Below are positions 7,492-64,000 of a stretch of 64,000 nucleotides of DNA, one piece after another. Location of the stretch: NCBI GenBank assembly GCA_024679065.1, contig JAGIQG010000002.1:117862001-117926000 (forward strand). The letters are read 5' to 3'. Position 1 is the stretch's first letter; every line of letters begins with the position of its first letter. Under the pieces are notes generated by a model, which worked only from the letters and a program-made list of their open reading frames with translations, was not told the origin of the DNA and made no database searches. The translations under genes and the position numbers were made by a program. The stretch comes from Sphyrna mokarran (Eukaryota).

Positions 7492-7697
7492 CTCATTTCT
7501 CGACCTTTGGGCTAAGATCAAGCGTAGAATCAAGTGTCTGATGAAATGTAATGCCTGTTCTTCTCAGCTTGAATCTAGTACATCTCCTTTGTGCTACTAT
7601 GAATTGGATTCAATTTGAATTTGAATTTGTTTTTTGGAGGTAACAAGGAAATGGATTATGGGCTTGCCCAGTTCATTCTGCACACTGGCTTTGTAAC
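7492..7697 (+). pseudogene. U2 snRNA-derived sequence (near full length, with internal insertions)
   Basis: TTCTCGACCTTTGGGCTAAGATCAAGCGTAG matches the U2 5' end. CTGTTCTTCTCAGCTT, TTTTTGGAG (Sm-site region) and GGAAATGGATTATGGGCTTGCCCAGTTCATTCTGCACACTGGC follow colinearly with U2. Confidence 0.75.
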
Positions 7698-8190
7698 TGA
7701 GATAGGAATAAAATTTTAAAATATATACACATATATAGGGACCCCATAGTAAGTCTTCTAACCACATGCCCAATTAGTCCCTGCATTAATTCACCTGCAC
7801 AAAGTTTCATTACAAACAGTTTGCATTTATATAGTGCCTTTAAAGTAGTAAAAATATGCCTAAGTGCTGTCCAAAAAGATAATGTGACAAAGTTTGACTT
7901 CAAACTGTGCAAAGTAGTGTTAAAATATGTGACCAAAAGCTTGTTTTAAAGAGCAACTGAAGAAAGAGAGAGGTGGAATTCCAAAGCTGATAGCTCTGGC
8001 AGCTGAAGGTACAACCACCAATAGTACAATGATTAAAATTAAGGAATCACAAGAGGCTAGAAGTGGAGGAGTATAGAGGACTGGAGGAAGTTGCAAAAAG
8101 AGAGAATGGATGAGGCCAGGGGTACTTTGAATACACCAATGAGGACTTTAAAATCAAGGTGTAGCTTAACCAGGAATCAGTGTGTTACAT

Positions 8191-41997: not shown

Positions 41998-42789
41998 TCT
42001 TCTCCCCTCCCACACCACCCATCTCAAGGGTTGCACTGACTTTACCCAGGGTTATGGACCTAGGTTGGCCATGCCAGTGAGTGAAGCTCAATTGCACCTG
42101 CACTATGGTGTGCAAGCCTCTGAGTTTGGACCAAGATCTGGAGTCTCGCTGCAATCACCCGTTGTGTCTCAAGCATGATCCTAAGACATTGTCATTCCTA
42201 AACATATTGTGGATGATTCAATTGGTATCATAGTTTTAATAGAACCTCAGCTAAGCGGTGATGATGCCTTCCCCTAAGTGAAGTCTCCCTACCTGACCAT
42301 ACCTTCTATGACTTTCCCCATTAAGACCATGCTTATCACCAAATGACACCTTGTCCTGCCTTCCTACTACTTTCTCCTTCTTTGAACATCTCACCTTATC
42401 TTGGTCATCTCAACTCTTGCTCAAGATCTTTATTCCGTACTGCAGATCCAAGTGCAATAAAAGTTTTCTCAAGGAGCCATCTTCACTGTTTTCCTCTCTC
42501 AGCAACAGCACCAAACGATTTCTCACATGATTTCAATATGCACTCCAACTCATCATGCTCTCTTCTTTCTTATTTTATTGCTCTTTTACCCACTCATAGG
42601 CTGGAACTCTACCAACTCAACTGCCACAGAATCAGCACAGGCAAGGGTCCAAAAATGGAAATCTCCATTGACCTTGGGTGGGAATTTCCAGTCTCGATTG
42701 CAGAGAGGCTCCTGATCTTGGTCCAGACTTAGTGGGCCATCGCTAAGGGCTCGCACACCATGGTGTAGCGAGCGAGGCTGTAAAATCAT

Positions 42790-43587
42790 CCAGAGAACAG
42801 TGACCACAATACCACACAACTCTGCCATAGCAACCTCTGCAAGACGTGCTGGATCATCGACATGGATGACATCATCAAACGTGAGAACACCATTCACCAG
42901 GTACACGGTACATACTCTTGCAACTCGGCTAACGTTGTCTACCTAATACGTTGCAAGAAAGGATGTCCCGAAGCATGGTACATTGGGAAGACCATGCAGA
43001 CACTATGACAGCGGATGAATGAACATCGCTTGACAATCACCAGGCAAAACTGTTCCCTTCCTGTTGGCGAACACTTCAGCGGTCACGGGCATTCGGCCTC
43101 CAACCTTCAGATAAACGTTCTTCAAGGGGCCTTCACAACACACAACAGCGCAGAGCCGCTGAGCAGAGACTGATAGCCAAGTTCTGCTCACGTGAGGATG
43201 GTCTTAACAGGGATCTTGGCTTCATGTCACACTATCTGTAACCCCCATGACTTGCCTGGGTTAGCAAAAAACCACACTTACTGTGCCGTCTGGAGACAAT
43301 ACACATCTCTCTAACCTGTGCTCAGTGCTCCTTCCACTTACATTGTTAGCCACTTTAAGACTTGAATAGCAGGTTAGGGGTAAAGATTTGCATTCTAATC
43401 AGTAATCTGTAAACAGTCTGTGCTGGTATGTGTGCTTTTGGAGACCAGAACACCTCATTCGCCTGACGAAGGCTATAAAGCTGAAAGCTTGCGAGTTTAC
43501 TATCAAATAAATCGGTTGGATTTAAAACTGGTATTGCAGACTTCTTACTGTGTTTGCCCCAGTCCAATGCCGGCATCTCTACATCAT
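42790..43587 (+). mobile_element. 5'-truncated Penelope-like element (GIY-YIG endonuclease + 3' pseudo-LTR), Neptune-like
   Basis: Translation CHSNLCKTC...SCNSANVVYLIRCKKGCPEAWYIGKT.QTL*QRMNEHR...PVGEHF...EQRLIAKF...GLNRDLGFMSHYL*. One CGA>TGA-type stop at 43006 and one frameshift. A Cys-rich linker precedes the GIY-YIG domain. Confidence 0.92.
43457..43496 (+). ncRNA. Minimal type I hammerhead ribozyme motif in the PLE pseudo-LTR
   Basis: ATTCGC-CTGACGA-A-GGCT(ATAA)AGCT-GAAA-GCT-T-GCGAGT: stem I, core, stem II and palindromic AGCU stem III. Confidence 0.75.
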
Positions 43588-44068: not shown

Positions 44069-44561
44069 ATGGCGGAGAGCGGCTCAGGCTCAGCTTTGGG
44101 CCCTGGTTCGGGCCGGGATGGATGCTGCTCCTCCTCCTCTAGCCCCAGCCCGGCTGGGAAAAGTCAGGCAGCCCCCGGGACCGCGGGCGCTGGGGAATAT
44201 TGTCGGAAGGTGCAGGAGTGGCTGTGGCAGTATTATAGCTACGTGCAGTGGCAGAGCTGGATGATGATGATGGCCCCGCTGCCTCCCTATTGCCCCTTCC
44301 CCGGCAGCGGCGGGGCCCGGCCGGGCGAGGGGGAGGAAGCCGCCGCCACCACCACCACCACCCTGCCCGGTGCCTACAACCCTTTCCCGATTTACCCTCC
44401 CTACTTTACTCTAGGGGTGGCCGCAGCGGTGCCGCCGGCTTCGGGTGAACACCCTCAGCAGCAGCAGCAGCAGGAGGTGGCGACAGCTTCGGGGAACCGT
44501 GTCGGGTTGCCGGGCACCAATGCACAGCAGCAGCCGGCGGCAGGGAATGTGCACCCCAGAG
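44069..44561 (+). CDS. FAM8A1: FAM8A1 coding exon 1 (MAESGSG...EYCRKVQEWLWQYY...NVHPR)
   Basis: Good Kozak context ACAATGG, GTAAGA donor in phase 1. EY.R.V.EWLWQ.Y motif of FAM8A1. Joins in frame to 60048. Confidence 0.9.
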
Positions 44562-45067
44562 GTAAGAGACAGCCACTGAGGCGGAAAAAGGGCTAAAAAT
44601 TCCAATTAGCGAGGCCAAGCTTCACAAACAAGGTCTCCAGTGAAGCCAGCTATTGAAATAGGGACACGCAGTTCTTTTTCCATCACAACACTTTGCAGTA
44701 ACGCCTGTTAATGCACCATAAAAATGTGATTGTTACTTTGAGCGCAACTCCTGGTAATGTGCTCAGGGATTTGGAGCTGTTGGACTTTGCAATCCTAAAG
44801 ATGTTCTATTTAAGGTTCACTTAAAATTCCCTTCTAGCTCTAATCATTGTTTCCTGACCACGATAACAGCTTCTGTTTGTTTTAAGTGTTGTGTGTGGTA
44901 TGGTAGGAATGTCGGTGAATGTGATCTATAAATCTTGAGTTGCGTCACAAGTTCTGCAAATTGAAGATGGTGAAATTCTGAGTGTCACTCAAGGGTTATC
45001 AGTGTAAGGATAGGCCGTTCGGCCCCTCAAGCCTGCTGCAGAGAAGATCTGGCTGATCTGATTATGG

Positions 45068-51924: not shown

Positions 51925-54710
51925 CAAAACCATTCCCTTCTCTTCCATATACTTATCAATTAACCTCTTAAACGCCACCAAACTTGGCGCATCTACAACA
52001 GCTGCAGGCAGGGCATTCCACTCCCTAAATCACTCTTTGAGTAAAGAACCTACCTCTGATATCCGTCCTATAACTCATACCCCTTAATTTAAAGCTGTGT
52101 CCCCTAGTGCTAGCTTTCTCCATCCTAGGAAAAAGGCTGTCACTGTCCACCCTATCTAAACCTCTAATCATCTTATATGCTTCAATAAGATCCCCTCTTA
52201 GCCGCCTCCTTTCTAACGAAAACAACCTCCAATCCTTCAACCTCTCTTCATAGGACCTGCCCTCCATACCAGGCAACATCCTGGTAAACCTCCTCTGTAC
52301 CCTCTCCAATGCCTCAACATCTTTCTTATAATGTGGGGACCAGAACTGCACACAATACTCCAAGTGCGGCCGCACTAGAGTTTTGTACAGTTGCAACATG
52401 ATGCTGCGGCTCCTAAATTCAATCCCCCTACCAATAAAAGCTAAGACTCCATATGCCTTCTTAACAACTTTATCCACTTGACTGCCTACTTTCAGGGAAC
52501 TATTGACACATACACCAAGATCCTTCTGTTCCTCAACACTATTAAGAGCCCTACCATTAGCCCTATACTCTACACATTTATTGTTCCTGCCAAATTGCAT
52601 TACCTCACACTTTTCCACATTAAACTCCATTTGCCACCTCTCGGCCCAGCTCTGCAACTTGTCCAAGTCACTCTGTAAACTATAACACCCCTCTTCACTA
52701 TCTACCACGCCACCGACTTTAGTGTCATCTGCAAATTTACTGATCCATCCCTCAATACCCTCATCCAGATCATTTATAAAAATTACAAACAGCAGGGGCC
52801 CCAAAACAGACCCCTGAGGCACACCACTCGTCACCGAACGCCACGATGAATATCTCCCATCAACCACCACCCTCTGTCTTCTATCTGCCAGCCAATTTCT
52901 AATCCAATTAGCTAAATCACCCTCTATTCCACACATCTGCATTTTCTGTAGAAGTCTTACATGGGCCACCTTATCAAAAGCCTTACTAAAGTCCATATAT
53001 ACTACATCAACCGCCTTACCCCCATCCACCTCTCTGGTCACTTTCTCAAAAAACTCAATGAGGTTAGTAAGGCATGAACTACCCTTCACGAAACCATGCT
53101 GACTATCCCCAATCAATTCATTTCTCTCTAAATAACTATAAATCCTATCCCTAATAATTCTCTCCAATACCTTGCCCACCACAGAAGTAAGACTCACTGG
53201 CCTATAATTCCCAGGAAGGTCTCTCTTCCCCGTCTTAAACAATGGGACCACATTCGCTATCCTCCAGTCCTTCGGAACCACACCCGTAACCAACGAGGAC
53301 CTGAAGATCAGAGCCAGAGGCTCTGCAATCTCCTCTCTTGCCTCCCAGAGAATCCTAGGGTAAATCCCGTCCGGCCCAGGGGACTTATCCAACTTCAAAC
53401 CCTCGAGAATATCTAGCAAATCCTCCCTATCTACTTCAATACTTTCCAGTTTGCTACCCTGTACCTCAGTGTTCTCCATAACTACATTTACATCACCCTG
53501 CGTGAATACCGAAGAGAAATATTTATTCAGTACCTCTCCAATCTCCTCAGGCTCCAAGCACAACTTCCCACTGCTGTCTATGACTGGCCCTAATCTTGCC
53601 CTAACCAATCTTCTATTCTTAACATATCTAAAGAAAGCTTTAGGATTCTCCTTAATCCTATCAGCCAAAGTCTTCTCGTGTCCCCTTTTAGCTCTCCTCA
53701 ACTCCCTCTTTAGCTCCCTCCTGGCTAATCTATAGCTATCCATTGCACTAAATGAGCCTTCAAGCCTCATCCTGACATAAGCCTCCTTTTTCCTTTTAAC
53801 CAGCAAATCAACTTTTTTCGTGCACCAAGGTTCTCTTACTTGACCATTTCCTCCTTGCCTGACAGGGACATACTTATCAAGGACCCGCAGCAGCTGCTCC
53901 TTGAATAAGCTCCACATTCCAGATGTTCCCAGTCCCTGTAGCTTCCTAGTCCAATCTATGCACCATAATTCTCTCCTGATGGCCTCATAATTACCCTTCC
54001 CCCAGCTATACCTACTGCCCCCAGCTTCATGCCTATCCCTGTCCATCACTAAGGTGAACGTAACCGAATTGTGGTCACTATCACCAAAATGTTCACTAAC
54101 TTCCAAGCCTAACACCTGGTCTGGCTCATTGCCCAGCACCAAATCCAATGTAGCCTCACCTCTAGTTGGCCTATCTACATACTGAGTCAAAAAAACCTTC
54201 CTGCACACTCTGTACGAAAACTGACCCCTCTAACGAGCTAGAGCTATAGCTATTCCAATCAATATTAGCAAAGTTAAAGTCCCCATCACAATTACCCTAC
54301 TACTTTCACTCCTAATCAGAATTGACTTTGCAATCCTTTCCTCAACCTCTCTAGAAATATTAGGAGGTCTGTAAAAGACTCCCAACAGGGTGACCTCTCC
54401 TCTCCTGTTTCTAATCTCAGCCCATACTACCTCAACAGACAAGTCCTCATCAAATTTCTTTTCTATCACCGTGATACAGTCTTTGACCAATAACGCCACT
54501 CCTCCCCCCCTTCTACCTCCTTCTCTACTCCGACTAAAGCATTTGAACCCCGGAACCTGCAACATCCATTCTTGTCCCTGCTTACCCAAGTCTCTGAAAT
54601 GGCCACAACATCGAAGTTCCAGGTACTGGTCCAAGCTGCAAGTTCCTCCCCCTTATTGCAAATACTCCTTGCATTAAAGTATACGCATTTCAAACCATGC
54701 CCCACCCCAT
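51925..54710 (-). pseudogene. CR1 ORF2 (APE endonuclease + reverse transcriptase), four single-base frameshifts in this sequence
   Basis: [51 protein letters not shown] and FADD motifs over ORFs 54466-54705, 54230-54634 and 52025-54208. Confidence 0.93.
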
Positions 54711-54807
54711 CCGTACGCCGCTGTGTTTTACAACTCTCCTCTATAACCCCCTTACTCTCATCCCTCTCAGCACCCCAACTACTTAGGATCCCACCCCCCC
54801 CCCCGAA

Positions 54808-55731
54808 TCAGTTTAACGCCCCCATCATAGCCTTAGCAAATTTTCCCCCCAAGATATTAGTCCCCCTCTGGTTCAGGTGTAGACCATCTCTATTGAAGAG
54901 GTCCCACCTATCCCAGAATGAGTCCCAATTGTTAAGGAACCTGAACCCCTCCCTCCTGCACCATCCACGCAGCCATGAGTTCAAACTGTCCCTTTCTCTG
55001 TTCTTCTCTAAACTATCCCTTGGCACAGGCAAGAGTCCAGAGATAACCACTCTGCCTGTTATGGACCTAAGCTTCCACCCTAACTCCATAAATTTCTGTT
55101 TAATATCCCCATCCCTTGTCCTACCTACATCATGTGTCCCCACATGAACAATGACTTGGGGCTGACTCCCCTCACCCTTAAGAATCCTAAAAACCCGATC
55201 TGCAACATCCTGGACCCCAGCCCCTGGGAGGCAACACACCAGCCCTGAGTCCTGTTTATTACTATTTACCCTCCCATCTGTCCCTCTAACTATGGAGTCT
55301 CCTATAACTAGGCCTAATCTCTTATTCCCCCCACCCACCTGAGCATTCTCAGCAGGCTCACCCCCAGAGACCTGCTCCCTTTGGTCAGCTCCAGTTGATT
55401 CTTCCTCAACTGTAGCCTCCAAGACAGAAAATTTATTTTGGAGGGGAACAGCCCCAGGGGATTGTCTCCCCGATTGCTTCTTACCCCTCCTCCTAATAGT
55501 TACCCAATTATCACTTTTAGGAGTTATAATCTCTTTGTTACTTCTGCCTATATCATCCTCTACCTCTCGAATTACCCTGAGTTCCTCTAATTCCAGCTCC
55601 AGCTCCTTAACACGATCCTCAAGGAGCTGCAAATGTGCACACTTCCTGCAGGTGTAATCAGCAGGAACACTACTGGTGTCCCTCACCTCATACATACTGC
55701 AGGAGGTGCAACGTACTACCTGCACTGCCAT
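54808..55731 (-). CDS. CR1 ORF1 (zinc finger/leucine zipper + SGNH esterase-like domain), open frame of 307 aa
   Basis: MAVQVVRCTSC...CRKC, LEDRVKELELELEEL coiled coil, VIGDSIVR, CLPGA, HVGTHD and DGLHLN blocks. Confidence 0.92.
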   Translation of the reverse strand: MAVQVVRCTSCSMYEVRDTSSVPADYTCRKCAHLQLLEDRVKELELELEELRVIREVEDDIGRSNKEIITPKSDNWVTIRRRGKKQSGRQSPGAVPLQNKFSVLEATVEEESTGADQREQVSGGEPAENAQVGGGNKRLGLVIGDSIVRGTDGRVNSNKQDSGLVCCLPGAGVQDVADRVFRILKGEGSQPQVIVHVGTHDVGRTRDGDIKQKFMELGWKLRSITGRVVISGLLPVPRDSLEKNRERDSLNSWLRGWCRREGFRFLNNWDSFWDRWDLFNRDGLHLNQRGTNILGGKFAKAMMGALN

Positions 55732-57740
55732 CACTGTTACTTTAATTTCCAGGAGAGAAAAAAAAAACTTCTCACACACTTTTATTATTAGGTTAGAGGA
55801 GGGGGGAGGGTGGGATACTCTACCTGTGTAGAGTATCGGGTTTCCTCTCTGTACCAATTTATAGAGTCAGAGAGAAAAACTACAACTACCGTTAAGGTTA
55901 TGAATCTTTGGACTTCTCTATCCCAATCTGTTGTGGATGCTCCATGATTGAATATGTTTAAAGCCAAGATGGGCAAAAGGGATACAGGGAACGTGGAGTT
56001 GAAGCCTGAAATCAGCCGTCATCATTGAATGGCAGAGCAAGCTCAATGAGCTGTATGTTCTGCTGCTGTTTGTCTCTTACGTTCTTGTGTTCATTTATAT
56101 GTTAGAAAATGTTTGAGACACAAACATTGTTGTGGTTATATAACAATATACCATGAATTACTTGATCTAAGGTACTGGTTTTTAACTCTCATCTGTAAGC
56201 ATAACTTACGATTTACCATGAGGAATCCCATAGTGATCACGTGATTAAGCTACCACCTTTTGTATAAGTGCCTGTTTTATTGCCTACATATGTGTCGGAA
56301 AGATGTGCCGGTTAGGTGTATTAGTCATGCTAAATTCTCCCTCAGGGTACCTGAACAGGCGCTGGGATGTGCAACTAGGGGATTTTCACAGTAACTTCAT
56401 TGTAGTATTAATGTAAGCCTGTGACATAAACTTTAAAAAAAAGCCGTACAATTCCTCTCTTTTATCAGTGGTCTTGATGTGAATGATATTCTTTTGATTA
56501 TCAATAATTGTTTTGCTGTGGTATTGTACAGTGGACAGAGAAATGGTGTGTTATCTGCAATACTGAAATTATTCATTTGATAATTTGTTGGGAATGTAAG
56601 TCGTATCACCTATCTCCAGCCTAAAGGGTTGCAAAACTTGATTGCTTAATAATTTGTCTGTCCACTAAAGTTATACTATAACTGTAGCGTAGATACAAAA
56701 GTAAATTTTGCTGCACTGATAAAATTAGCTAATTGCTGCATTGTGATAATTATAGATTTAAGAAACTCATACATTGGGAATCCAATATGAAAGCTCAGCT
56801 TATGTATCAGGCTATGATGTAGCCTGAACCTATTCTGTAGATACCGTGATGGCAAGAGAGACTTCTTGACATATCAGTTGTTGCATCATTGGATTTTGCA
56901 AGGCATTTATTTGGTCTTTTATTTAAATAAATGGTCCCCAAAATAAGGTCAAGGAGATGTTGGGGAAATTTTATTTAGAACAGACATTAGATGCATAGGA
57001 GGACCGTCACTTGCAAATTCCTCTCCAAGTCAGAAACTATCCCAACTTGAAAGTATATCCCTACTGAATGGAATAGCATTGTGAAGGCACCTTCACCATG
57101 GGCTGCCACAGTTCAGTAAAAATATTCACCACTTTGTGGGCAATAATTCAAACCTTACCAGCAACATCCAAGTATGGAAAAATATCTTCATGCTCAAATG
57201 AGCCCAATAGTTGTTTGGAATAAACAAATATAGTTGAATGCTCTGGGGAGACCGATGTTTTGATTCTATAGTTTGCATATATCCGTGTTCGTATACACTA
57301 GTGTACTTAACAAACTAGCTCATGCTTTGCACTATCAACAAAACACCACCTAAATATTTGTGATTGCAACAGTGCCATGAGAGCTGTTAGTCTTGAATTC
57401 ACACTTCTGTTTTTGTACCAGGAAAAGGTGAACTGGTGCAACTATACCTAAACATGCAGCAACAATTCTAAATGTCCATTTGTAAGATTGAGCAGTAAAT
57501 GTTATGTATTCCATTACCTGCAGATTGTATTCAGACAGCATTATCACAAACCGCTCTTTCCCATTGTAATCGAGCTAAGGTGGGGAACTAGTAATCACTT
57601 GTTAAATTAGGGTTGCTGGAACATTTAATACACAATATGAAACTTGGTGTCCAGCTCTATTCCTTCAAGACTTTTGTGTCTCTAGAGGTCATCAGAGTTC
57701 ACATTTATGTGCATCTGTTTCTTTTTAGCAGAGCACAGTT

Positions 57741-59625: not shown

Positions 59626-60047
59626 AAGCAACTTACAAGCACTGCAATTGAACTGTGGTGTTATCACAGAGTTATAACAACCTCAATTGCTCAGATACAG
59701 CACTTCCCCATAGGAAGTACATGATCAGGAACTTCAAAGGGAAAGTCCATGTTATCTAAATAGTGACACAAACTTATACACAGTTGGGGAAATGTATTTA
59801 TTTTAAGGGTGACATTTTCCTGTTTAAAAAATTAGCAGTATATCTTTTCATTGTCTATATAGGTGCTCCATTAATGTGGAATGATGGTGGAGAAGGAACC
59901 TCAAAGCCATAACCAACGTTTTCACTGGTTTGGAGGCAGTTTCCATGTTCCAGTAGATGCTGCAGAAAGAGAGCCTTTCTCTTGTGTATTTATTAAATGT
60001 GTGGCATGAATTTTGTTTTCAAATCAGAATTACTTTTGTTTCTAAAG

Positions 60048-60168
60048 GCCGTGAATACACTATTCCAACCCTGATGCATCGATTCCTTGCAGAGATGGTG
60101 GATTTTTTAATCCTGTTCCTGTTAAAAGCTGTCGTGGTGCTGACTGTGATGCATATCTGTGGGATCAA
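60048..60168 (+). CDS. FAM8A1: FAM8A1 coding exon 2 (start of RDD domain): (G)REYTIPTLMHRFLAEMVDFLILFLLKAVVVLTVMHICGI(K)
   Basis: TTTCTAAAG acceptor, GTAAGT donor, phase 1 to 2. Closely matches vertebrate FAM8A1 GREY.IP.L.HRF.AEMVDF. Confidence 0.95.
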
Positions 60169-62022
60169 GTAAGTAGTAGAACTCTTATTTACAACTGCAG
60201 CTTTTGTTCATAGATAATGTTGTAACACTGGTAAATCATGAAGGGGAGCATATCTATCATTTGAGTTGACCATGAATGAATCTAAACTGACAGTCAGTAC
60301 ATGAAATTGTCAGTTGCTAATTTACTTTATATTAGAATTGCTGCAATTTTTGATGAGCACCATAAGGTGATGTTTTGATGTCCAGTTTCTGTTTCTGTAC
60401 AAGGAAACTGTATGCATGTGTGTGCGCAAGTTCAGGATTAATTTCTCCAAGTATTTTGCTTGCAATTTTGCTCCTACTTTCAGCTGGAGTAACATGTGCC
60501 TAATAAAAACAGTGGGAAGTGACATTTTACACATCCTATTCTCAGGCATTTAAATAAAATTCAGCTTTTTGCACATGTTTTATTTTTGGGAATATTCCTT
60601 AATTTATTTTGGAGCTGGGCGATGCTGTCTAGATAGATGGATTGCAGATTGGGAGTGTGTTAGAGAACTGCAGCCTTTCTAAGGAAGTCATAAATTCACA
60701 AAAGCTGAAAATGAAATGGTAATAGGTGATACCAGTGAAATCCTGTGACTTACACTTTGGTTTGTGACAAATGGGTGACCCAGAAACATTCTAAACAGAA
60801 ATATTTTCTCAGCAGATTAATGATGTATTTCACCAGACCTGTAAGAATGAGTGTTTTTAAAAAGCAAAAACTCTTAAAAGCATTTAAAGGTCTGCCTAAT
60901 TTATTGATGCTTTGTGATAATCTATAGGATTTGGTACGATGTAGCATATTGTAGTTTATATGGTTCTATACAGTGCTGGAGAAGGTGGTGATCTCTAGGA
61001 CTCTGTGATACCATGTCATGTGATCTCTAGGACTTTACTCATTTATATAGAATGTGATTAAGTAGCCGTTGTTTTTAAGGACTTTGTCAGATCAGTATCT
61101 TTCAAGAATGATTTTTAAAAATCCCTTTTTAGCGAGCAGGAAACTGGTCACTACTGTAAGAAGGAGACGGTGAGCTTTTTTAAATACTCACTGACAAAAA
61201 AAGGTTAATTTAATCCACCATTGCAAGTTTGAGACAGTGGGTCACTGCTGATGTTTGAGGGAAAGAGATCCCACGTAGAATTGCAGGACTTCAGTGCAGA
61301 AGGAGGCTATCGTTCTATCATGTCCACACTGCTTTCCAAATGAACAATTCACGTAATGCTATTCTCCCACCTTCTCAAGCTGGCTGATTCTTCCTTTTCA
61401 CTTGAGCTTAATTCCCTTTTGAATATTTAACTTAAACCTGCTTCCTCTACACTCATAGGTTGTGTATTCTGGACCTTAATCACTTGCTACATGAAAAAGT
61501 TTTTCCTTGGTTCACTTTTATTTTGTATGCTACTTTAAATCTGTGCCCTCTCTTGATCCCTTCATGAGTGAGAATTATTTCTTCTTACATTCTGTGTCAA
61601 AATCCCTCGTGATTTTAAATATCTCAATCAGATGTCCTCTCAGCCTTATCTTTTCCAAGTCAAACAGTTTTAACTTCTCCAATCCATCTTTGTAACTGAA
61701 GTTCCAGAGAGTTCCACATTCGTGAATGTTTTCTGCACTCACTCCAATGCTTTCACACCTTTCCTGAATTGTGGGGCCCAGAATTGGATTCAGTTCTCCA
61801 ACTGACATCATAACTTTTTATAAAATTCATTTATAGCATGGGCATCACTGGCTAGGCCAGTATTTATTGCCCATCCTTAATTGCCCTTGAGATGATGAGC
61901 TGCCTTCTTGAACTGCTACAGTCTCTGTGGTGCAGATACACTTACAAAGCTGTTACATTAGAGTGTGCTCAGTAAAGGTTTACAACGCCAATTTTAAATC
62001 CAACCAATTTATTTGATAGTAA

Positions 62023-62062
62023 ATTTGCGAGCTTTCGACTCTATGGCCTTCGTCAGGCAAAT
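62023..62062 (-). ncRNA. Minimal type I hammerhead ribozyme motif (left arm)
   Basis: Exact reverse complement of 62811-62850. Confidence 0.8.
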
Positions 62063-62810
62063 GCAGTGTTCTGGTCTGCAATAGCATTCATATCAACACA
62101 GACAGTCACAGATTGCTGATTAGAATGCGAATCCTTACATCTAACCTGCTATTCAAGTGTTAAAGTGGCTAACAATGTGTGTGAAGGGAATCCTGAGCAT
62201 TGGTTAGAGAATTGTGTGTTTTCTCCAGACAGCACAGTAAGTAAGGTTTTTTGCTAACCCAGGCAAGTTACGGGGGTTACAGATAGTGTGTCATGAAGCC
62301 AAGATCCCTATTAAGACTGTCCTTGTGTGCGGAACTTGGCTATCAGTCTCTGCTCAGCGACTCTGCGTTGTCATGTGTCGTTCCGCACACGAGGACGGCC
62401 TTAATAGGGATCTTGGCTTCATGACACAGGGGTTACAGATAGTGTGTCATGAAGCCAAGATCCCTATTAAGACCGTCCTCGTGTGCGGAACGACACACGA
62501 CAGCGCAGAGTCGCTGAGCAGAGACTGATAGCCAAGTTCCGCACACATGAGGACAGTCTTAATAGGGATCTTGGCTTCATGACACACTATCTGTAACCCC
62601 CGTAACTTGCCTGGGTTAGCAAAAAACCTTACTTACTTTGCTGTCGGGAGAAAATACACAATTCTCTAACCAATGCTCAGGATTCCCTTCACACACATTG
62701 TTAGCCACTTTAACACTTGAATAGCAGGTTAGATGTAAGGATTCGCATTCTAATCAGCAATCTGTGACTGTCTGTGTTGATATGAATGCTATTGCAGACC
62801 AGAACACTGC

Positions 62811-62850
62811 ATTTGCCTGACGAAGGCCATAGAGTCGAAAGCTCGCAAAT
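62811..62850 (+). ncRNA. Minimal type I hammerhead ribozyme motif (right arm)
   Basis: ATTTGC-CTGACGA-A-GGC(CATAGA)GTC-GAAA-GCT-C-GCAAAT: perfect 6-bp stem I, intact core, predicted cleavage after C62844. Confidence 0.82.
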
Positions 62851-64000
62851 TTACTATCAAATAAATTGGTTGGATTTAAAATTGGTGTTGTAAAACTTTA
62901 CTGAGTTTACCCCAGTCCAACGCCGGCATCTCTACATCATGACATTAGTGTGTTCCAGGATTTTGACCTAGTGACAGTGAAGGAATGGCGATATATTTCT
63001 AGATCAGGATGATGTGTGGCTTGGTGGGGAAGCTCTGGTGATGGTGTTCCCATGTGCCTAATGCAATTGTTTTTCTAGTTGGTAGCAGTCATGGGTTTGA
63101 AAGGTGCTGCCAAGGAATCTTGGTAATTTCCTACAATGCATCTTAAAGGTGTTGCATACTGTTGCCACTTTGCCAGTGGTGGAAGAAGTGAATGTTTGTG
63201 GAAGGGGTATCAATTAAGTTGGTTACTTTGTCCTGGATGGTATCAAGCTTCTTGTATTGTTGGAGCTGTACTGAACAAAGCTAGGGGAATTTCACAGTAA
63301 CTTCATTGCAATGTTAATGTAAGCCTTGCTTGTAACTAATGAATAAACCTTTTAAAAACTTTAAAAAAAAAGTGGAGATCGTTCCATCATGTTGCTGACT
63401 TATGCCTGGTAGATGGTGGGTTGGCTTTGGGACTCAGGAAGTGAGTTACCCTCTACGTGATTCCTAGCTTCCTACCTGTTTTTGTAGTCACTGTATTTAT
63501 ATGGTTGGTCCAATTTAGTTATTGGTTAATAATAACCTCCAGCACGTTGATAGTGGATGATTCAGCAATAGTAATGCCATTGAATACCAAATGGCAATGG
63601 TTAGATTCTCTCTTGTTGGAGATGGTCACTGCTTGGTGAATGTTACTTGCCACTTATCAGTCCAAGCCTGGATATTGTTCAGGTCTTGCTGCAATTGGAT
63701 ATGGATTGCTTCAGTGTCTGAGGAGTCACAAATGGTGCTGAATGTTGTGCAATCGTCAGCAAACATCCCCACTTCTGTCCGTATGATGGCAGGAAGATCA
63801 TTGATGAAGCAGTTGAAGATGGTTGGACCTAAAACAGTATTCTGAGGAACTCCTGCCCTGGAACTGAGATGACTGACTTCTAACTACCCCTATCAATCTG
63901 CCTTTGTTTAGGTATGATAGCAGAGAGTTGATTTCCATCGACACTGTTTTGTTGAGGCCCCTTGAAGCCCAGTCTTTCATGGGCAGTTGCTCTCACCTCA

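Follow-up and report, generated by a model that had tools for sequence, protein, structure and literature searches.

A probable minimal hammerhead ribozyme of a Neptune-type Penelope-like retrotransposon in the shark Sphyrna mokarran, with an apparently inert copy in an intron of FAM8A1

Minimal hammerhead ribozymes (min-HHRs) of metazoan Penelope-like elements (PLEs) were defined by Cervera & de la Pena 2014, and a dimer model was already included in that work (PMC4209133). A loop-less form, GAAA-GCU-H, is listed there for family 1 of Schistosoma mansoni, for Adineta and Philodina, and for the painted turtle Chrysemys. The min-HHRs showed no cleavage as monomers and low cleavage as dimers and trimers, and release and circularisation of the element RNA were proposed (PMC4209133). 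Pairs of motifs on opposite strands were noted in 2014 as well, for Schistosoma and for a Cotesia locus (PMC4209133). Dimer cleavage of PLE hammerheads is also cited in a review (PMC6765202). In a lizard PLE, the hammerhead cuts only when the PLE protein is present, and insertion in vitro does not require the ribozyme (Frangieh et al. 2024, PMC11167929). Reverse transcription of this element begins at two sites bounding the tail (PMC11167929). Non-LTR retrozymes carry related motifs, type I hammerheads akin to those of PLE pseudo-LTRs (PMC7229834), and a recent preprint describes retrozymes with hammerheads as well as PLEs in the only cartilaginous fish that it sampled (bioRxiv 10.64898/2026.07.22.740005). 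No cartilaginous fish stands among the min-HHR species in the accessible part of the 2014 supplement (PMC4209133). Our literature search returned no relevant paper on shark PLE hammerheads, which does not imply absence from print, and supplements may list shark motifs. The kind of motif described here has been known since 2014 and the dimer idea is published; the present motif adds sharks to the class. Work in the field now turns on cleavage by PLE hammerheads in vivo and on the dependence of transposition on it.

The window analysed here is the whole stretch of 64,000 nucleotides of Sphyrna mokarran DNA. A minimal type I hammerhead was located at 62811..62850 on the forward strand (copy A), with 11 of 11 invariant core bases and a 6-bp stem I. 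The coordinates of its parts and of all other features are given in Table 1. A preliminary description of this DNA had presented copy A together with a diverged copy at 43457 (copy C), and the letters of both were as it gave them, including the identical core. A third copy on the opposite strand (copy B) had been overlooked. The core, the extra A, the GAAA and the GCU are letter-identical between copies A and C, and the 11 invariant core bases are complete in copies A, B and C and in a metagenome PLE fragment (L002), which is 52% identical over 50 endonuclease residues. Helix III of copy A consists of the loop-less palindrome AGCU at 62840-62843, identical in copy C and L002. As the preliminary description had claimed, such a helix can form only between two copies. 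Position N17 of copy A is a C, and cleavage is therefore predicted after 62844, in agreement with the earlier proposal. Stem I of copy C is formed by 43457-43462 with 43491-43496, six base pairs of which one is U.G. Stem II is more variable. Its length is 3 bp in copies A and B, 4 bp in copy C, and 5 bp in L002 and in two contigs of another organism (X13). In copy A it runs G-C, G.U and C-G before a C.A mismatch. An extra base stands between positions 9 and 10.1 (A62824), and the pair G10.1-C11.1 (G62825-C62836) is found in copies A, B and L002. Copy C has one base pair more in stem II, yet carries G.U at this normally conserved pair.

Table 1. Coordinates of the hammerhead motifs, the surrounding PLE fragments and the host gene within the window.
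Feature	Position	Strand	Remark
Copy A, stem I	62811-62816 with 62845-62850	+	6 bp
Copy A, core C3-U4-G5-A6-C7-G8-A9	62817-62823	+	
Copy A, extra A	62824	+	
Copy A, stem II	62825-62827 with 62834-62836	+	3 bp
Copy A, G12-A13-A14-A15.1 (GAAA)	62837-62840	+	
Copy A, GCU	62841-62843	+	
Copy A, N17 = C	62844	+	
Hammerhead copy B	62023..62062	-	40-mer identical to copy A (read as 62062-62023)
Hammerhead copy C	43457..43496	+	8 differences from copy A; G.U at pair 10.1-11.1; U17 at 43490
AATAAA	62860..62865	+	15 nt behind predicted cut
PLE 3' fragment A	62490..62940	+	last ~34 ORF codons, stop ending 62596, then pseudo-LTR with hammerhead and tail
PLE fragment B	61968..62428	-	inverted copy of 62443-62905, 97.8% identical, without tail
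Short fold-back copy of 62544-62603	62426..62489	-	at 5' end of fragment A
Terminal 'tail'	62906..62940	+	35 nt; in A and C, not in B
PLE 3' fragment C	42770..43587	+	broken GIY-YIG endonuclease, stop ending 43241, pseudo-LTR
Left candidate target-site duplication, imperfect	61955..61967	+	11 shared bases, 2-nt indel versus 62943-62953
Right candidate target-site duplication	62943..62953	+	flanks inverted pair
FAM8A1 first coding exon	44069..44569	+	
FAM8A1 next coding exon	60044..60169	+	

The shark motif resembles the published min-HHRs in most respects. It is of type I, lacks loop III, and has the palindromic positions 15.2-16.2, the extra base between 9 and 10.1 and the pair G10.1-C11.1 (PMC4209133). 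It matches the published pattern CUGANGAH-G...C-GAAAN-NU-H with a U-rich 5' flank and an AU-rich 3' flank (PMC4209133). It also lies in the 3' pseudo-LTR of 5'-truncated copies with a second copy nearby on the opposite strand (PMC4209133). Stem II of the shark motif, at 3-5 bp, is shorter than the 5-8 bp of most published min-HHRs, copy A lying near the weak end, and stem I, at 5-6 bp, is at the long end (PMC4209133). The motif had been called an extremely reduced variant, a wording that is not supported, since the loop-less GAAA-GCU-H form was published in 2014 for several animals and defines the PLE hammerheads of metazoans. The canonical type I hammerheads of Rfam share the core bases and the order of helices. 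In contrast, the shark motif has no stable helix III and no Rfam match. The proposed check against the Rfam models gave no hammerhead at E<=10 in the 64-kb window, in a 251-nt stretch, or in L002 and two further PLE fragments (L001 and L003). A plain pattern found 3 matches in the window versus 0.10 expected. A structural descriptor (stem I of at least 4 bp, stem II of at least 3 bp, core required) matched exactly the three copies, against a mean of 0.0075 across 400 dinucleotide shuffles. Its strict form, with stem I of at least 6 bp and a loop-less helix III, matched none of the 400 shuffles. A covariance model built from 4 sequences detected no further full copy within the window, and the next best match was partial with 16 bits. 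The AATAAA lies just downstream of the cut, as had been pointed out. A coupling of this signal to cleavage was dismissed as unsupported, because it is not present in the distant homologue L002, and the element ends ~96 nt past the cut.

All three motifs sit in the 3' part of one repeat, whose copies are 97.8% (A versus B) and 85.7% (A versus C) identical. In copies A and C the motif lies in the pseudo-LTR behind the stop of the PLE ORF, ~220 nt downstream in copy A, and the attribution to a shark PLE in the preliminary description is upheld. The endonuclease of copy C contains one stop and one frameshift near 43128. A GIY-YIG domain is detected in it (PF01541, E 4e-6), and the residues of a CX4CxxC linker and of a CCHH motif are seen (P0001). 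The copy C protein has 25 longer relatives. They include proteins of Mustelus asterias, 82-86% identical for the best six, and others from Scyliorhinus, Heptranchias and Chiloscyllium. An RT domain is present in the two relatives tested, and the endonuclease is C-terminal in RT-bearing relatives and in an 881-aa relative. The window itself contains no RT. The Neptune clade has been described with a C-terminal GIY-YIG, CCHH and a CX2-5CxxC linker (PMC8557442). The C-terminal GIY-YIG, CX4CxxC and CCHH of the shark element, judged by eye from motifs and not from a tree, fit this description, and the element is assigned to this clade. A locus search with a close protein alignment yielded 2 loci from 49 candidates in metagenomes, 0 from 51 in viral contigs and 1 from 36 in genome contigs. 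In L002, the hammerhead stands ~210 nt behind the stop, with other stems, the same loop-less AGCU and a recognisable downstream stretch and tail. No viral, genome or metagenome contig matched the tail motif itself.

Two 3' ends of element copies were found, 35 nt apart and lying 61 and 96 nt past the predicted cut. The ends of the family accumulate at the second one, where 428+600+488 contigs of a DNA sequencing run (X1) leave the reference (62939-62941). This arrangement resembles Poseidon PAc of Anolis, in which a pLTR hammerhead lies upstream of two RT start sites bounding a tail of 30-40 nt (PMC11167929). On the other hand, PAc belongs to the Poseidon clade and the shark element to Neptune, the PAc ORF starts inside stem II, and protein-assisted cleavage has been shown for PAc (PMC11167929), whereas for the shark element it is predicted. 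An identity as a non-LTR retrozyme was also considered. Retrozymes are head-to-tail tandem repeats without an ORF, each unit with a hammerhead, whereas the shark copies lie scattered or inverted and still contain remnants of the ORF. The repeats around copy A are only inverted or short internal ones, with no head-to-tail units, and this identity was rejected. Some minor observations concern the same region. The element ends on ATG in copy A (62939-62941), and an ATG is found at the aligned place in L002; the ORF of the following tandem unit may begin there. A few X1 contigs return from the element end (62943) to ~62905, which suggests a tandem duplication of the tail. In three X1 contigs the strand changes precisely at both arms of stem I (62810-62851), as if the motif had been inverted in place at another locus.

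We propose, with high confidence, that the motif is a min-HHR of the pseudo-LTR of an abundant shark Neptune-type PLE, which would work as a double hammerhead in a tandem element, and that copy A is an inert passenger. In an active tandem element, two motif copies in one transcript would swap their stem I strands, and the AGCU palindromes of the two copies would pair to form a shared helix III. Judged from the published family, cleavage by the double hammerhead would follow N17 and be slow, and it would probably require the protein of the element as a chaperone. Reverse transcription would begin 61 or 96 nt past the cut, as we infer from the two 3' ends. The inserted copies keep the motif with 61-97 nt behind it, and the template should therefore have been either uncut, or cut and re-ligated.

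A less likely alternative takes the motif for a structural or protein-binding element which, for example, positions reverse transcription, with cleavage playing no part in transposition. It agrees with the three copies, all of which retain the uncut motif and 61-97 nt downstream. It agrees also with the family ends at 62939-62941, as none lies at 62844 among the best-supported loose ends listed. Catalytic mutants of the lizard PLE show normal insertion in vitro, and none of its RNA-seq reads ends at the cut site (PMC11167929). Naiad PLEs are described as thriving without canonical hammerheads (PMC8557442). However, the same ends are explained by a template that is cut and circularised. Furthermore, the catalytic core is without a known role besides cleavage, and it is the same in the shark copies as in L002, whereas the stems have changed; this argues against the alternative.

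The fold of copy A was predicted for the 40-mer alone, for dimers and for the intron transcript. In copy A alone, a competing hairpin is formed with P 0.83-0.99, and stems I and II reach only P<=0.09. This hairpin pairs positions 2.2-2.1-C3-U4 with the extra A and 10.1-10.3, and it can form in copies A, C and L002. Its P is 0.09-0.85 in copy C and <=0.09 in L002. The double-hammerhead fold lies above the dimer minimum by 9-10 kcal/mol for A:A, C:C and L002:L002 and by 14 kcal/mol for A:C; the nearest-neighbour model ignores the tertiary contacts of the core, and its energies do not favour the dimer. Dimer folding was therefore discarded as support for the double hammerhead, the fold being 9-14 kcal/mol above the best dimer. 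A more elaborate scheme gives the competing hairpin a function. The hairpin would keep the core inactive until the protein of the element is bound near the tail, 61-96 nt downstream, and dimer cleavage, circularisation and a start of reverse transcription inside the circle would follow. Inverted 5' twins such as copy B would silence the copies, which would then be tolerated in introns. Such a protein-gated switch is improbable in our view, and since the hairpin dominates in copy A alone, its support is thin.

Copies A and B belong to one insertion. Their arms (61968-62428 and 62443-62905) form an inverted repeat of ~460 bp with 98% identity and a smaller fold-back inside. Copy B stops at the place matching 62905, whereas A and C extend 35 nt further. 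Inverted 5'-truncated copies and tails of 30-40 nt are described for PLEs (PMC11167929, PMC8557442), and all three insertion hallmarks, the 5' truncation, the inverted 5' copy and the 35-nt tail, were found here. The host gene is FAM8A1, with 83% identity to the Mustelus protein. No FAM8A1 exon was detected after 60169 within the window, and therefore A and B lie in the following intron (intron 2). Copy A is in the sense orientation of the gene. Fragment C lies on the same strand as FAM8A1 and ends ~480 nt before the start codon of the gene, likely in the promoter region. In the predicted fold of the intron transcript, all 40 nt of copy A pair with 62023-62062 at P>=0.997, and the hairpin has an energy of about -894 kcal/mol. 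The antisense arm B is transcribed before A in the FAM8A1 intron RNA. Since copy A is predicted to pair with its mirror arm in the intron-2 transcript, cleavage is unlikely here. Copy B is on the opposite strand and so cannot supply a dimer partner for A in the same RNA. Copy A is without a same-strand partner within the FAM8A1 stretch inside the window, and the end of the gene lies outside the window. The inverted repeat at 61968-62905 is likely to be a long double-stranded RNA and an editing target. Copy A had been described as structurally intact. This is too generous, and in practice it is not supported, given the 3-bp stem II, the competing hairpin and the pairing with the antisense twin. 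Most likely, copy A is merely carried along by a 5'-truncated insertion that has an inverted twin, and it does not cleave.

The opposite possibility is that copy A functions where it stands and cleaves the FAM8A1 pre-mRNA within the intron, either alone or in trans with a transcript of the family, with an effect on the host gene. We regard this as very improbable. The sense orientation, the intact core bases, the C at N17 and the great abundance of the family are in its favour. However, the antisense arm is made first and pairs with the whole motif, stem II has only 3 bp, the competing hairpin dominates, and monomers of the min-HHR class showed no cleavage (PMC4209133). Copy C stands 19 kb from it, before the start codon of FAM8A1. 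An identity of 98% between the A and B arms suggests a young insertion rather than an old co-option. Locked in a hairpin of 460 bp, copy A is a poor test object, and at most it shows how an intact ribozyme core can be harmless in a host intron. In contrast, a very abundant family with covarying subfamilies would be usable material for the question of cleavage in vivo.

The preservation of pairing was assessed across the copies and their relatives. Of the 40 positions, 8 are different between copies A and C. The single two-sided pair is 62814/62847, U-A versus C-G, and the remaining stem changes are one-sided. The preliminary description had warned that such changes could be CpG decay, and the caution was justified, as this sole two-sided change is CpG-type on both sides. 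The probability that 8 differences spare all 11 core bases by chance is p=0.056. Therefore, copies A and C alone prove little on selection. The homologues extend the comparison. Two-sided changes occur at 4 of 11 pairs among 3 distinct sequences, and 29 of 33 cells pair (87.9%). The covariation score was reached by 3 of 500 shuffles and slid registers drop to 21-48% paired, in a tiny sample whose structure was drawn from the same sequences and whose kinship alone can beat shuffles. Together with two contigs of X13, these 3 sequences make up the covariation evidence. The two-sided changes of L002 include transversions, G-C to U-A in stem I and C-G to G.U in stem II. In X13, for which 5 contigs aligned, two contigs have 5-bp stems II, GGCAC/GUGUC and GGUGC/GCAUC, with an AUA loop. 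Read by hand, these stems differ by two two-sided changes. The claim that pairing is preserved across diverged copies thus holds beyond the two copies originally named, since L002 and the X13 contigs pair through two-sided changes. The covariation in this small sample shows pairing that appears to have been kept by selection on transposing PLE lineages.

Variation within the family was read from sequencing runs, 4 of the 22 listed being used (X1, X13, X17 and X20). X20, DNA raw reads, aligned 1 read, and the other three consist of contigs. X17, presumably RNA, hardly covers the core. In X1, 45,391 contigs aligned, and its shares are depth-weighted values rather than copy counts, biased by which contigs align. 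Changes of at least 4% are seen at 10 of the 29 motif positions beyond the core, at 1 of 11 within it and at 20 of 261 outside the motif. Those beyond the core fall on N7, N17, the distal stem II with its loop and the 3' strand of stem I. The sole core position is G12 (5.9%), a CpG. The constancy of the core does not exceed that of the flanks (p=0.59), nor significantly that of the non-core motif (p=0.23). Within the two CpGs C7-G8 and C17-G1.1, the free base varies (N7 11.5%, N17 19.8%), and the constrained partner (G8, G1.1) stays below 4%. The pattern of free and constrained CpG bases was counted for a conserved hammerhead, and the comparison of core and flanks was counted against it. A stem I variant of X1 with CCAGC as the 5' strand (loose-end consensus of 32 contigs, agreement 0.67) would pair with 3' variants at 62847-62849; it was left out of the covariation because linkage of the two sides is unproven. 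The least probable explanation is that the pairing is an accident of CpG decay of one ancestor and the motif a chance look-alike or long dead, as the CpG-type change between A and C, the p value for core sparing and the missing Rfam match would suggest; against it stand the transversions of L002, the strict descriptor without a match in the shuffles, the position of the motif at the place of the family's published hammerhead, and the failure of Rfam to recognise L002 as well.

Several side observations were made on related sequences and on the window. A hammerhead-like motif was seen in L001 at 1780-1818, ~290 nt behind the stop of a distant PLE (38% identical). In this motif the core pair is swapped to G3-C8, stem I has 4 bp, stem II has 3 bp, and loop III is a single nucleotide. 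By its sequence, a single one, the G3-C8 is a putative natural form of the classic rescue change. L003, a PLE fragment with 59% identity to the shark protein, comes from a 1.3-kb contig in the assembly of a bacterial symbiont and most likely represents host DNA. No hammerhead motif is present in it, and the sequence stops ~35 nt behind the ORF. Shark gene models annotated as NOXP20-like, septin 5a, IQCK and USP8 (P0006, P0016, P0023 and P0026) contain pieces of the PLE. P0016 reads through the pseudo-LTR and the hammerhead region. Such models would reflect exonisation or an annotation artefact. At 7492-7716 of the window, a U2 snRNA-like stretch scores 44 bits versus a cut-off of 46 and is probably a pseudogene. 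Finally, a strong negative GC skew (-0.45, -0.35) is found at 52001-56000 in FAM8A1 intron 1.
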